Shown: one piece after another, positions 23,165-27,897 of the stretch
How positions within the stretch are numbered: position 1 is the stretch's first letter
How the letters are laid out: every line of letters starts with the position of its first letter
Source of the DNA: a virus
Taxonomy: Duplodnaviria > Caudoviricetes
DNA: 39,304 nt
Strand: one strand, 5' to 3'
IMG/VR virus record: IMGVR_UViG_3300027419_000016
Span: 1-39,304 of that record
The notes under the pieces: model-generated
Seen by the model: only the letters and a program-made list of their open reading frames with translations
The model's database searches: none
What the model was told of the DNA's origin: nothing
Position numbers and translations under genes: made by a program

Positions 23165-24475
23165 CTAAAATTTCCGTGACATTAAACTGGGCAATACTTT
23201 ACCACCCTGATCGGGTTCCGTCTCAGGTGATTTTGGCAGGCTCATATCCCGCTGAAAATAGGCCAAAATGCAGGCATCAGCAAGATCCGGGCTACGGTAG
23301 CCACGCTTTTTGTATTGGTCTTTACTTTCAATGCACCGACGTTCAAATCGATCCATCGACCATTGGCGAGTAGATAGTTCCATGAGCAAATCCTGGTTAA
23401 GTGGCAGTTCAAGATCAGTCACCAGACTGGCAAACGAAAACCACATTTCCGAAATAAGATTGGGGTATTTGTCCTTATCTTTCGGTTCACCACCAAAGTT
23501 AATTGCGATGACATGATAACCACGCTTAATCATCTCATCAACGACACCACCGCCAACCCCGCCATCATCAATTTTGAGTAGTATCCGTGTATCAAACCCT
23601 AGGAAGTCCTCTAATAGATCACACGTCTCAGTCGTGCGTTTTTTCTCGTGAGTTTCCCATTTGAGTGTCTTGCGACCCTGGCGCATCCAAAATACGCTGC
23701 GGTCACCGCCAAACCGGGCTACATCCACCCCGACTTCTTTAAGGCCCGTTAACTCAACCTCCTGATTCATTGCTTTCAGAATATCATCCCGGCCGATGAT
23801 AGCGAACTCATTTTGCGACAATGGCTCCCCAAGCCATTTATGGGTATACAATGCCGGATAGTTCTTCTTATCGTGTTCGATCTCTAGCTGAATCTCTTTA
23901 GTGAGCAGGCCGTGACGTTCGAGGACATCAAAATTGACCATCTTCACATAGGTACGATCCGGCTTATGGAGCACGAATTTCACAAACACTGGGTCGAGTT
24001 CGGTAAATCGGTTGAAGGTGAAGATGATCTGTGACCCTTCCTTACGAATGGTTGGGGTGAGAATGTCCAAGGACTCATTGGTCACTCCTTGAGCCTCCTC
24101 GACCCAACAAATATCAATGCCTTCGGTACTTTTGATCTCGTTGATGTTTGACCGCAATCCTTTGAAGATGAACTCGCTGCCTGTCGCCAGGTTTTTGATT
24201 GAGTCCTTGGTGATGTAGAACTCATCAAACCCATACTTCTCGATAATATCCTTAAGAAGTTTGTGGACAGAATCCTTGATCGTTTTCTGAATCTCCCGGG
24301 TACAGAGAATCCGAAGCTGCTCCCTACGGGATCGAAGAATCAACGCCTCTGCCACCTGATAGCTTTTACCAGAGTTCCGACCACCGTAGAGGACGATGTA
24401 TCGCCAGTAGGGATTGAATAGCTCTTTGAAGGGCTTAAGAAACTCGACCTCAATCGTTGGATTCATCGTCATCAC
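23165..24475 (-). CDS. terL: Terminase large subunit (PBSX family)
   Basis: Walker A GGRNSGKS, Walker B WVEEA, nuclease GVDVARFGGD and SPDLADA. Confidence 0.95.
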   Translation of the reverse strand: MMTMNPTIEVEFLKPFKELFNPYWRYIVLYGGRNSGKSYQVAEALILRSRREQLRILCTREIQKTIKDSVHKLLKDIIEKYGFDEFYITKDSIKNLATGSEFIFKGLRSNINEIKSTEGIDICWVEEAQGVTNESLDILTPTIRKEGSQIIFTFNRFTELDPVFVKFVLHKPDRTYVKMVNFDVLERHGLLTKEIQLEIEHDKKNYPALYTHKWLGEPLSQNEFAIIGRDDILKAMNQEVELTGLKEVGVDVARFGGDRSVFWMRQGRKTLKWETHEKKRTTETCDLLEDFLGFDTRILLKIDDGGVGGGVVDEMIKRGYHVIAINFGGEPKDKDKYPNLISEMWFSFASLVTDLELPLNQDLLMELSTRQWSMDRFERRCIESKDQYKKRGYRSPDLADACILAYFQRDMSLPKSPETEPDQGGKVLPSLMSRKF

Positions 24476-24848
24476 CGACGAATTTTACCAGGGCGGTCTT
24501 TAATTCGAGTTCGCCGCCAAGTTCAGTTTTTTTAGCAAACTCATGACGCATTTTTCGTTCCAAAAACCACTTTGCCGTTTCCGGGTGTTTAAGATCATCA
24601 ACAACTGTCTGCCGTGCCCGCAGAATCGGACCTTCTTTCCATGCCTCTTTTTGCTCGACAAATTCTGGATGACGTTTCTGATAGTCATACAGGGTTGCTG
24701 GATTGATTTCTGCGTACGCACATGCTTCACGATCAGACGCACCAATCATGAATGCTTGACGAAGTAGCTCGACCTTTTCTTTCGTGATTGCTTCAGGTCG
24801 CCCAACCTTCTTTTTGACTTTTATAGTAGGCTGTTTTTTCTTTTTCAT
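24450..24848 (-). CDS. terS: Terminase small subunit
   Basis: GRP plus HTH (GASDREACAYAEI..ATLYDY); overlaps terL. Confidence 0.8.
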   Translation of the reverse strand: MKKKKQPTIKVKKKVGRPEAITKEKVELLRQAFMIGASDREACAYAEINPATLYDYQKRHPEFVEQKEAWKEGPILRARQTVVDDLKHPETAKWFLERKMRHEFAKKTELGGELELKTALVKFVGDDDESND

Positions 24849-24855
24849 AAGCTAT

Positions 24856-24930
24856 TGGAGCGCCGGGGTCAGACTCTCACTGCCCTCTACTCCCTGGATG
24901 GGAGTCGCAACGATTCTTTGCTTCCGGCGC
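24856..24930 (-). tRNA. Non-canonical tRNA-Gly(UCC)-like element embedded in the mom 3' end
   Basis: GCGCCGG/CCGGCGC acceptor, U73, encoded CCA; GCAA/UUGC D stem; ACUCC/GGAGU stem with loop CA-UCC-AG; bulged T arm. Confidence 0.85.
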
Positions 24931-25274
24931 AGATATTCTCCTAGGTATTTTCTCATATCCTGATCTAGTGGCATAAGGAATTTGTGTTTTCCCTTACTAA
25001 TGAAGTATTCAGCCTGTGGGTCAAGATGTTTACGGACTGCCTCAAGTGACTGTTTGACACCCATACTATGGATAGTCTTTGGATGAACTTTTTTACCCCG
25101 GACGATAAATGCACTCCGCGTCCCTTTATTAACATGACCTTCATATAACCAATTGCCTGCCTGATAGATTTTGCCTTCGTGGTTTTGGTCAGCATCGGCA
25201 TAACTGACAATAAGGCGGAGGCCGGGGTTTTGTTTGAACAACATCTTGATTGCAATACTGAGAATCTTGGTGAC

Positions 25275-25292
25275 TGTGTGTGTGTGTGTGTG
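25275..25292. repeat. (TG)9/(CA)9 simple sequence repeat inside mom
   Basis: 18-nt perfect dinucleotide run exactly at the frame break. Confidence 0.95.
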
Positions 25293-25502
25293 CTCAAAGC
25301 GACCCTCGTTAATTCACATACCTGTGTTTGATCTAGTCCGTATGGGCTACCAATGTGGTTGTTGGCCCCACGACTAAAGAGAACGCATCCAATGAACTTT
25401 TCATCCTCCCACACCCCGATCTTCACGAGTTTACCCGCAGGGAGGCTGTGGGAATAGTGAAAACTCTCACAGGCATATTTCGCTGCTTGGTGGGTACACC
25501 AA

Positions 25503-25991
25503 TCAAGCCGTAAATTCATGGCCACATTCCGGACAGGTTACTTGCTTCTCATTGAGTCGATCAAGGCTCGGTGGATTTTCACTGCTTGGTTGGAATCGGT
25601 CAGCCAGATCGGCCAGCGGGGTGGATTTTGAAAGGTCGACATGATAATCATTCAACCGCAATGATGGGACAGCCAGGACTAATTCAGCTAGTTTCTGTTG
25701 GTCATATTCCCCTGCCCGATCATTGTCAGATAAGGCGTATTCCACCCATTCCTTTTCTGTCGGTGCGTCGACGACACTTACCCAAACCTCAGAAATACCA
25801 AGATCCTTGTAAGCCCGCAAACGCATATTCCCACCGAGAACTACCCCGTCCGTCGTTACAATCAACGGCTTGTATTGCCCCAATTGGTTAATTTGCCGTT
25901 TAAGACGATCAAAATCGTCTTTATTGATTGTCCTGGGATTCTTATCCCAATTCTTCAACTTCTCAATCGGCCACAATAGTTTTTCGGCCAT
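25503..25991 (-). CDS. ParB/Srx N-terminal domain protein with C-terminal Zn ribbon
   Basis: KNPRTI, PLIV...VLGGNMRLRA, DNDRAG, CPECGHEF; start after GGGAGG. Confidence 0.85.
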   Translation of the reverse strand: MAEKLLWPIEKLKNWDKNPRTINKDDFDRLKRQINQLGQYKPLIVTTDGVVLGGNMRLRAYKDLGISEVWVSVVDAPTEKEWVEYALSDNDRAGEYDQQKLAELVLAVPSLRLNDYHVDLSKSTPLADLADRFQPSSENPPSLDRLNEKQVTCPECGHEFTA

Positions 25992-26013
25992 AATACCTCC
26001 CACGATTCACCCC

Positions 26014-26488: not shown

Positions 26489-26695
26489 TCATGCCTGTCG
26501 TTGGTAGCGTGTTTCACCGTAGTATTCGTGGATAATATCATGGCACAATCGGCAGATGAGGATGACCATTATGTCTCGCATCGGGTGTTTGTAGTACCGT
26601 GATCCCTTTTTACGTCCCGGCCAAATTGCATGGTGTTCAGTTAGTGGGCCATGGATACCACACAGTGGACAAATACCAAGCTTCTGATTACTCAT
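26489..26695 (-). CDS. Small HNH endonuclease
   Basis: CPLC...TEHH...CRLCH..IH; real start at 26695. Confidence 0.8.
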   Translation of the reverse strand: MSNQKLGICPLCGIHGPLTEHHAIWPGRKKGSRYYKHPMRDIMVILICRLCHDIIHEYYGETRYQRQA

Positions 26696-27083
26696 AGCGG
26701 AAAAACAAATACAGTTGCGTACGATTATTAACGATGGTGTAGAACATGTCGGTCGTGAGTTGGCGCATAATCCAGATCCCCCGGCCCGATACGGCCTGGT
26801 GGTCGGGCAAGTCACGCTCCATCCATTCGCTGTAGTCAAACGTACCCATGTTTTCAACCATGAATTTGATATGTGATGGATAGACAGTTACCTCAAGGGT
26901 AATATCCCAATCGTGAGCGATAGAAACATAATAGGCATTACCCAATGCCTCTCGCACGGCCAATTGCACGTCATACTGCCAATCAACATCAAAACCAGAG
27001 AGGACAATCTTCAGAAACTCAACAAACCGATGAATCAGGCTCGCTGGATAGGTTGCCGTGCTGGTCGTGCCGATTTCCAACAT
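26688..27083 (-). CDS. RsbW-like HATPase_c (anti-sigma / Ser kinase family) protein
   Basis: N-box LAVREALGNA, G1-like VENMGTFD, G2 SGRGIWIM; AAGGAGG RBS. Confidence 0.8.
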   Translation of the reverse strand: MLEIGTTSTATYPASLIHRFVEFLKIVLSGFDVDWQYDVQLAVREALGNAYYVSIAHDWDITLEVTVYPSHIKFMVENMGTFDYSEWMERDLPDHQAVSGRGIWIMRQLTTDMFYTIVNNRTQLYLFFRYE

Positions 27084-27171: not shown

Positions 27172-27241
27172 TGGAGCGAACGAGTGGGTACGAGCCACCA
27201 ACCTGTCGCCGAAGCGACTGCTCTCCTTGAGCTACGTCCGC
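27172..27241 (-). ncRNA. Anticodon-less tRNA-like RNA with Gly-type acceptor stem
   Basis: GCGGACG UA GCUC AAGGA GAGC A GUCGC UUCG GCGAC AGGUU GGUGG CUCGUAC CCACU CGUUCGC U CCA. Confidence 0.85.
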
Positions 27242-27261: not shown

Positions 27262-27897
27262 TCACATGGCAAGAATCTTGTCGGCATACTGCCAACCTTT
27301 GCTTTTTGGGTTTTTAATCCCGCCTTCCCCGGCATTATAGGCTGCCAGGGCTGCCCGCAGGCCAAGACGGTTGATTTTATCGGCCATCACTCCTGAAAAC
27401 CAACGAAGCGACCAGTTAGGATCGAACGCCTGATCAGCTGTGATGTCTGGATGACTCCGGAGGTTGATTTGCGCGATACCGTAATCACCTGTTCCCGATA
27501 TAACGGCTGTTTGGAAACCGGACTCGTGCCTGATTTGGTTAACAAGGACTCGGATATAGGATTGGCTACCGATAGATGATTCGATGATTGCTCTGGTTTC
27601 TTGTTCGGACAATCGTCTGGATTGTGTCCGAGGTGGTGAGTATGATTCGTCTGTTTGCGCGGTAGTAGTCCGAGTATCCCGAGGGATAATAGTATGAATA
27701 GGATCACCGATAACAAAGGTAACATGTTCCTCCTTTTTTGCTACTAAAAAAGTCGGCCGAGGTGGCATCTGTAAAAATGCTACTTCTGACCGACTCAATT
27801 TGTTTTCCGCTCCAGACCATAGTCCTCCAGCACGCTCGGCATATCCTACTACTAAAAGTGTGCAAAGAATGGTTAACGCAATACTTAGTCTGTTAAT
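27262..27897 (-). CDS. Lytic transglycosylase (SLT domain), probably membrane-anchored with an ATT start
   Basis: HESGF, GIAQI, AAYNAG motifs; frame is open upstream through a TM helix to ATT after AAAGGAG. Confidence 0.8.
   Translation of the reverse strand: MNRLSIALTILCTLLVVGYAERAGGLWSGAENKLSRSEVAFLQMPPRPTFLVAKKEEHVTFVIGDPIHTIIPRDTRTTTAQTDESYSPPRTQSRRLSEQETRAIIESSIGSQSYIRVLVNQIRHESGFQTAVISGTGDYGIAQINLRSHPDITADQAFDPNWSLRWFSGVMADKINRLGLRAALAAYNAGEGGIKNPKSKGWQYADKILAM

Follow-up and report, generated by a model that had tools for sequence, protein, structure and literature searches.

A tRNA-Gly-like element is written into the last codons of mom, the gene for a DNA-modifying enzyme, in the virus genome analysed here (the window, 39,304 nucleotides). 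Comparison with homologous loci confirms that this element is real, that it covaries, that its glycine identity is conserved and that it is tied to mom. Since homologues carry the covarying element at the same place, the chance explanation is removed.

In phage Mu, Mom moves glycine from Gly-tRNA(Gly) to the N6 of adenine, giving 6-NcmdA in DNA (Silva et al. 2026, PMC13219725); this use of Gly-tRNA(Gly), which a sequence-only reading of the window had already brought up, is thus on published record. According to the available part of that paper, the Mu enzyme is fully active with ordinary E. coli tRNA-Gly (3 of 3 isoacceptors), and Gly-tRNA(Ala) is rejected (PMC13219725). The GlyRS determinants given in the accessible text of another study are G1-C72, C2-G71, C35, C36 and U73; the enzyme from L. 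plantarum prefers a purine4:pyrimidine69 pair and needs the whole L shape (PMC10464925). EF-Tu reads the pairs 49-65, 50-64 and 51-63 (PMC3239215), and proteinogenic S. aureus tRNA-Gly has G49-U65 and G51-C63 (PMC12256121), as far as the available portions of these papers go. Genes for tRNA-Gly(ACC) are described in part of a further source as universally missing, and a human tRNA-Gly with ACC is charged (PMC8007984).

The element and the gene that contains it

The record (39.3 kb) is complete, with direct terminal repeats, and Pfam identifies genes for capsid, tail and terminase. The element sits in the last 79 bp of mom, in the phage late region, where, read from 24930 to 24856, it encodes the last 25 residues of the minus-strand ORF 24852-25244. 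In addition to the parts listed in Table 1 it has a D stem (GCAA/UUGC) and an anticodon stem (ACUCC/GGAGU) that closes the loop CAUCCAG. On re-reading, the sequence, the coordinates, the peptide and the position of CCA one base before the stop were all as first reported.

Table 1. Positions of the element, its parts and the neighbouring genes in the window
Feature	Position	Strand	Remarks
tRNA-Gly(UCC)-like element, full D-arm-bearing 75-nt form	24856..24930	minus	within last 25 codons of mom
Acceptor stem, 5' strand GCGCCGG (G1, C2, G3)	24924..24930	minus	paired with 24860-24866 (CCGGCGC)
Anticodon UCC (C35, C36)	24896..24898	minus	in loop CAUCCAG; A at position 33
T arm GGCAG/UGAGAGU/CUG(A)CC	24867..24884	minus	bulged A at 24869, between pairs 51-63 and 50-64
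Discriminator U73 and encoded CCA	24856..24859	minus	followed by one A, then mom stop TAG 24854-24852
mom, 3' reading frame	24852..25274	minus	C-terminal half of Mom domain and tRNA-coded tail; PF25680 E 1.8e-19
mom, 5' reading frame	25271..25525	minus	carries Arg equivalent to Mu Mom R111; PF25680 E 9.2e-17
(CA)9 repeat	25275..25292	minus	junction of the two mom frames
ParB-N-like gene overlapping mom start	25503..26003	minus	PF02195 E 5e-4, under curated cut-off
Small terminase subunit, probable	24450..24848	minus	inferred from position ahead of large subunit; no Pfam match
Terminase large subunit	23165-24475		PF04466

The bacterial tRNA-Gly identity set (G1-C72, C2-G71, C35, C36, U73) is present in the element, as had been claimed for it. 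Canonical translational features are missing: position 8 is A and not U, position 33 is A and not U, the D loop has no GG, there is no UUC T loop, and the T stem is bulged. Pair 4-69 is C4-G69, against the purine4:pyrimidine69 preference of L. plantarum GlyRS. In the T stem the element has G49-C65 and C51-G63 in addition to the bulge, and G49-U65 and G51-C63 are both lost.

The cloverleaf with a bulged T stem is both the minimum free energy (MFE) and the centroid fold of the element (-30.7 kcal/mol; z -2.59, with 3 of 200 shuffles equally stable), and it persists when flanks are included (z -1.45). A single-sequence fold of this kind is modest evidence by itself and suggestive only. Neither ARAGORN nor Rfam at E<=10 called the element at 24856-24930. 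The covariance model described below (R1) gives it 80.4 bits, the sole match in the genome, a score obtained with the element in the R1 training set.

Mu Mom (PF25680, PDB 8BV8) belongs to the same protein family as the mom product here, and both halves of the gene lie above the PF25680 cut-off (70.6 and 61.8 bits against 27.1), which agrees with the first description of the host gene as Mom-like. Of the catalytic residues, the equivalent of Mu Mom R111 is kept (ELTR), and the position of S124 is taken by Thr, which 30 of 115 relatives also have there. The PYPK motif of the family is absent. The reading frame is not intact, a point that the sequence-only reading had overlooked. Its two frames overlap and meet at (CA)9 (a frameshift), and the 5' frame continues past the repeat out of frame to a stop at 24965. 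This is the sole dinucleotide repeat of at least 5 units found in the 39.3-kb record; among 242 loci, it occurs in mom only in two records of the same phage, and it exceeds by one unit the spacing implied by, and inferred from, the family alignment. The repeat has the same length in L001 and L002, neither of which is an independent record. A contig of one sequencing run (X1), possibly the source and not independent either, shows no difference, the repeat letters themselves lying outside that comparison. The repeat may be a phase-variable on/off switch for DNA modification, the mark of a slippage-made pseudogene (a fixed break) or an assembly slip. With mom frameshifted in this genome, the unit is therefore either switched off by the repeat or decaying.

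ParB-like genes stand before mom in annotated phages, and the gene upstream of mom in the window is ParB-N-like. On the other side, the ATG of the probable small terminase gene lies 8 nt past the CCA of the element. A promoter scan gave results at chance level (6 found, 4.1 ± 1.9 expected).

A second tRNA-like gene is found on the minus strand at 27172-27241 (Rfam tRNA, 44 bits). It has a glycine-type acceptor (GCG...CGC), U73, CCA and intact D and T arms, and a cUUCGg tetraloop instead of the anticodon loop, making it an anticodon-less tRNA. A gene for a histidine-kinase-like ATPase of the anti-sigma type (PF13581) and an SLT transglycosylase gene flank it on the minus strand at 26688-27083 and 27262-27798. 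A pattern search for other copies of this anticodon-less tRNA returned only two records of the same phage.

Distribution and conservation of the element

Homologues were sampled from three collections, with 593, 168 and 564 confirmed loci; the best 80 of each were taken, giving 240 loci. An earlier strict descriptor matched 127 of 241 loci, a few of them spuriously, and missed variants, so R1 was used instead. This covariance model was made from 103 full-length elements; 50 of these come from the same 240 loci, and matches of those are circular. R1 gave 188 matches over the 240 loci. Five were left out, namely the tandem second copies at L107, L123 and L219 and weak matches elsewhere at L048 and L133. 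In this best-80-per-collection sample the element thus lies at the 3' end of mom and on the same strand as the gene in 183 of 240 protein-selected loci, one of which (L047) is weak. By collection these are 65/80 viral loci, 42/80 from species genomes and 76/80 from metagenomes.

When 63 related proteins are aligned, the alignment matches Mu Mom over its whole length (HHalign 98.4%) and PDB 8bv8 (E 1.9e-17). Many relatives run about 25-35 residues past PYPK, with tails that are in different frames (e.g., GGATPTPALQ or, in another frame, RRGSTDPHAP), and it was these tails that first pointed to conservation of the nucleotide sequence. Of the 165 distinct elements in the best-80-per-collection sample, 141 are contained entirely in the ORF, the stop falls within 22, and the remaining 2 were scored as downstream. 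One of the latter, L216, was scored wrongly; there two mom copies stand in tandem and the element follows the second. The 3' end of the element falls in three reading frames (97, 32 and 12 elements). The stop codon lies 3' of G1 in 163 of the 165, and G1 is within one base of the YPK codon end in 132 of 161.

The 57 of 240 loci without an element (again for the best 80 per collection) include prophages of Yersinia/Serratia, Bacillales, Amycolatopsis and Bacteroidales. ARAGORN found no tRNA-Gly in their fetched flanks, and in 37 of the 57 the ORF ends no more than 3 residues from YPK. These nearby ends, the end of Mu Mom at PYPK, the three reading frames and the 22 elements with an internal stop together argue that the tail does not reflect a protein constraint. 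In a FastTree of 223 Mom cores, presence or absence of the element takes 8 changes against a shuffled mean of 47, a result that is clade structure only and not co-evolution. Full and D-armless forms are interleaved on the same tree (35 changes for three states). Tandem pairs of elements occur at one mom end (L219 771-918, L107 970-1108, L123 3080-3243, L322 and L358), and the subtypes of a pair sometimes differ.

Seven cultured-phage loci were examined. In the Arthrobacter phages Sonny (L363 2098-2171) and Wyborn (L364 2104-2177), a tRNA-Gly(UCC)-like element that is missing from the annotation overlaps the mom stop. The element of Salinibacter B2_17 is bulged and lies just downstream, wholly past the annotated mom stop, and that of Microbacterium phage Appa is downstream of mom on the opposite strand. 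The other three, Mu, phiEf11 and P12002L, have no element.

The acceptor stem has 7 of 7 pairs in 163 of 165 distinct elements. GCG/CGC (G1-C72, C2-G71 and G3-C70, the last of these also a GlyRS determinant) is found in 161 and U73 in 160. The anticodon is NCC, within a 7-nt loop, in 143 of 165; UCCA is encoded in 123 and absent from 42. NCC and UCCA are the features whose conservation had been put forward as a check on the element. ACC is the commonest of the 143 anticodons (76), followed by UCC (55), CCC (10) and GCC (2), and such freedom at position 34 is expected if the element is read by the synthetase but not by the ribosome.

The non-translational features are family-wide and not peculiar to this copy, where every one of those first listed was seen. 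The bulged A of the T stem occurs in 153 of 165 elements, C51-G63 in 137 and A8 in 147; of 161 parsed elements, only 34 have a T loop of the UUC type. Full-length elements number 91 of 165; the other 74 are short, a linker replacing the D arm, with GG kept in 69. Position 4 of pair 4-69 is a pyrimidine in 81 of 103 aligned elements. When two D-armless examples were folded, the full model was the MFE structure in neither, and one lost the acceptor stem too.

A methanogen-provirus lineage differs at the discriminator base, where it has the archaeal A73. A73 with an ACC anticodon and no CCA is found at L091 3103-3182 (a Methanobacterium ferruginis provirus), L376 1316-1395 (minus strand) and L192 2388-2467. 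L091/L374 and L376 represent two archaeal genomes, L376 being the second from the phylum of the L091 host. The tRNA-Gly(UCC) of the L091 host also has A73 and lacks CCA, matching the element. These A73 cases are close relatives, probably from one lineage or event. The mom gene in L376 is broken. U73 is kept at L089, on a Woesearchaeota MAG, and A73 also occurs outside the host-assigned cases, at L068 and L224. A search of 329 genomes of one archaeal phylum gave a Mom match in only 3, and one of these (L375) is without the element.

The pairing can be followed independently of mom. A DNA pattern that fixes only the T arm and the last 7 bases matched at least 120 viral loci (about 1400 are estimated), from which 114 distinct elements were obtained. 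The acceptor pairs 4-7, which the pattern does not select, are perfect in 110 of the 114, against 8.5 ± 2.6 (maximum 19) over 1000 permutations. In the 103-row alignment, with relatedness uncorrected, 96.8% of cells pair, double-sided changes occur at 17 of 21 pairs, and the covariation score is 0.619 compared with 0.157 for shuffles and at most 0.147 for slid controls. Pairing was in part a basis for choosing the acceptor, anticodon and T stems of that alignment. The D stem played no part in either search, and it has double-sided changes at 4 of 4 pairs and 94.7% of its cells paired. Covariation among homologues, which had been named as a way to check the fold, is present in both sets, with no correction for relatedness in either.

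The reverse test took the 80 pattern-found loci that had long flanks: 72 of them have a Mom-like ORF on the strand of the element, 3 have none, and at 5 the flank is too short. Fourteen of the 72 belong to more distant Mom clades and have the element at the 5' end, in 13 cases in the same open frame as the Mom domain, and all 12 proteins of these clades given to Pfam were above the Mom cut-off. At L313 the element lies upstream of the start codon.

In-frame 5' elements with a bulged T arm are found at L247, L257, L278, L282, L288, L289, L291, L292, L299, L303, L315, L316 and L318; among 5' elements a start codon between CCA and the Mom domain is often missing, and many have an anticodon loop of 8 nt. 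The 3 loci of the reverse test that have a bulged element and no mom nearby are L255, where by eye the element is free-standing between promoter-like and terminator-like sequences, L269, where it follows a glycosyltransferase, and L308. An HMM Mom match at L308 was rejected as false; the element there is degenerate (no GCG start, no NCC), with a ParB-N gene on one side and terminase on the other, and looks like a remnant in decay since mom was lost.

A possible glycyl donor and other explanations

The mom 3' end doubles as a conserved, deformed tRNA-Gly. Judged from these sequence patterns, it is rather likely that this is excised, glycylated and kept from EF-Tu and the ribosome as a private, non-ribosomal glycyl donor for Mom. 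The elements keep the features read by GlyRS and discard those read by EF-Tu and the ribosome, and this favours a dedicated donor. RNase P would cut at G1 on untranslated messages, a 3' nuclease or the CCA-adding enzyme would complete the 3' end, and host GlyRS would charge the product with glycine. The bulge beside pair 51-63, C51-G63 and the loss of U8 and D-arm contacts would weaken EF-Tu binding; Mom would therefore draw on an unshared glycyl pool, separate from translation, to modify adenine of phage DNA.

Several observations count against a donor. Pair 4-69 is of the GlyRS-disfavoured type, the short form may lack the L shape, UCCA is not encoded in 42 of 165 elements, and the copy here is without C56 and in a frameshifted gene from which PYPK is also gone. 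Ribosomes translating through the element would hinder its folding. Because Mu Mom uses all three ordinary isoacceptors, and because 57 of 240 loci, and Mu and phiEf11 among the cultured phages, have no element, it is an accessory and not a requirement: a quarter of the sample does without it.

A cut at G1 would fall just after the Mu-length catalytic core and leave the message stop-less. Such a message could feed back through tmRNA tagging, or a tail-less enzyme could be released. Feedback through stop loss, which the sequence-only reading had regarded as built in, is unsupported speculation. G1 adjoins the last conserved codon in 132 of 161 elements, which leaves almost no room for an earlier stop, so the pattern carries no sign of selection for feedback. 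The placement of the stop 3' of G1 may be geometry rather than design; a spacer before G1 of at least one whole codon occurs in only 29 elements, which leaves a selection test on stop placement without power.

A wider proposal can be made, which is less likely than not to hold as a whole. Mom genes, as a widespread class, would encode their own RNA co-substrate, the transcript yielding either Mom protein or, if cut at the codon that ends the catalytic core, a minimal, ribosome-proof glycine carrier (down to a 68-nt, D-armless form, and with ACC, an anticodon forbidden elsewhere). The discriminator would be re-tuned to the host synthetase, and loss of the stop through the cut would determine how much enzyme is made relative to the co-substrate.

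The fold might instead stay in the mRNA as a cis-acting tRNA mimic, bound by Mom or GlyRS and regulating expression of mom or terminase, and never act as a glycine donor; the thrS operator is a cis-acting tRNA mimic that controls expression in this way. Embedding in coding sequence at either mom end, 3' here and 5' in frame in other clades, fits such a role (compare the 5' case in the accessible part of PMC3146451), as does the start of the next gene 8 nt past CCA. However, U73 and the CCA encoded in 123 of 165 elements are needless in a retained fold, and the positions in Appa (opposite strand), B2_17 (past the stop) and L313 (before the start) suit a trans-acting product. Regulation in cis is considered unlikely.

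It is quite improbable that the element is an ordinary phage tRNA-Gly, or an anticodon-nuclease decoy, that aids translation and owes its place at mom solely to the depletion of host Gly-tRNA by Mom. There are near-canonical members (L038, L293 and L068), the T-stem bulge is absent in phages Sonny, Wyborn and Appa, and the element is annotated as tRNA-Gly in two cultured phages. These features are outweighed by ACC as the commonest anticodon and by the frequencies, given above, of A8, the bulge, the missing D arm (74/165) and the UUC-type T loop.

Very improbable is a processing signal only, in which an uncharged substrate of RNase P and the CCA enzyme separates mom from the packaging genes on the late transcript and makes mom mRNA less stable. 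The stop 3' of G1 in nearly all elements (163/165) would be in keeping with this, as would C56, which is absent from this copy and kept in 134 of 158 parsed homologous elements, and the 6 nt after the element end, which are AU-richer than the gene (0.69 vs 0.54). The conserved C35 and C36 with a free N34, the covarying anticodon stem and the archaeal switch to A73 are left unexplained by it. An artefact (chance fold, protein-level conservation, attachment-site remnant or DNA packaging signal) is hardly credible: the z values are modest and the 3' form is directly ahead of the terminase genes, but a chance fold, a protein constraint and an attachment-site remnant are rejected in view of homologue conservation and covariation at unselected positions, the three frames and the stop inside 22 elements, a complete cloverleaf that differs from host tRNA-Gly, and the recurrence of this T-arm motif at the 5' end of other mom clades.

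Known systems and significance

A related element has been described before. In the mom gene of Dehalococcoides ssrA islands, a 76-bp tRNA-Gly-like 'pseudo-tRNA' lies in the first 150 bp (McMurdie et al. 2011, PMC3146451). As far as the available text allows comparison, the two have in common a fold in mom coding sequence, a variable first anticodon base ('DCC' there) and a conserved 3' end. The Dehalococcoides form is at the 5' end and comes from 16 islands and one fosmid, and the accessible part of the paper gives no function or link to Mom chemistry (PMC3146451). In contrast, the elements considered here, compared with it by description, are at the 3' end, in phages of many hosts, and include D-armless and archaeal A73 forms. 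The literature searched, mostly open-access, yielded no description of a 3'-embedded or D-armless form or of an embedded tRNA tied to Mom chemistry. The 5' pseudo-tRNA in mom was thus known before; the 3'-embedded, widespread form with minimal variants appears to be new. Mu Mom ends at PYPK, has no element and uses host tRNA-Gly, and no phage-encoded tRNA is mentioned in the available part of its description (PMC13219725).

The non-proteinogenic tRNA-Gly species of staphylococci serve as the functional model for the mom elements. The S. aureus tRNA-Gly(UCC) species NP1, NP2 and NEW, used by FemXAB, keep glycine identity, have lost the EF-Tu determinants of the T stem and work with a GNAT-fold partner, and in the accessible portions of these papers they are free-standing chromosomal genes with a regular T stem and UCC only (PMC12256121, PMC3239215). 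The mom elements differ in lying inside the ORF of the enzyme, in the bulged T stem, in the use of any NCC and in the frequent loss of the D arm. Allo-tRNAs and selC* tRNAs, with 8/4 or 9/3 acceptor branches, are likewise described, in the available text, as non-canonical cloverleaves of bacteria and phages from metagenomes (PMC5389517); the mom elements have 7 bp and a bulged 5 bp and are inside a gene.

The pseudo-tRNA noted in mom in 2011 is now linked to the use of Gly-tRNA(Gly) by Mom reported in 2026. The pairing of mom with an element is common, occurring in about three quarters of the near homologues sampled (best 80 per collection), and standard tRNA finders miss the copy in the window, which is read as a protein tail instead. 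Since a reconstituted Mom assay exists and cultured phages of non-pathogenic hosts carry the element, the question of its role is directly testable. If the element is a glycyl donor, the gene for an enzyme would carry its own RNA co-substrate within its codons, and the family would offer a natural collection of tRNAs that GlyRS can charge and that evade EF-Tu, among them D-armless bacterial-type forms and tRNA-Gly(ACC).
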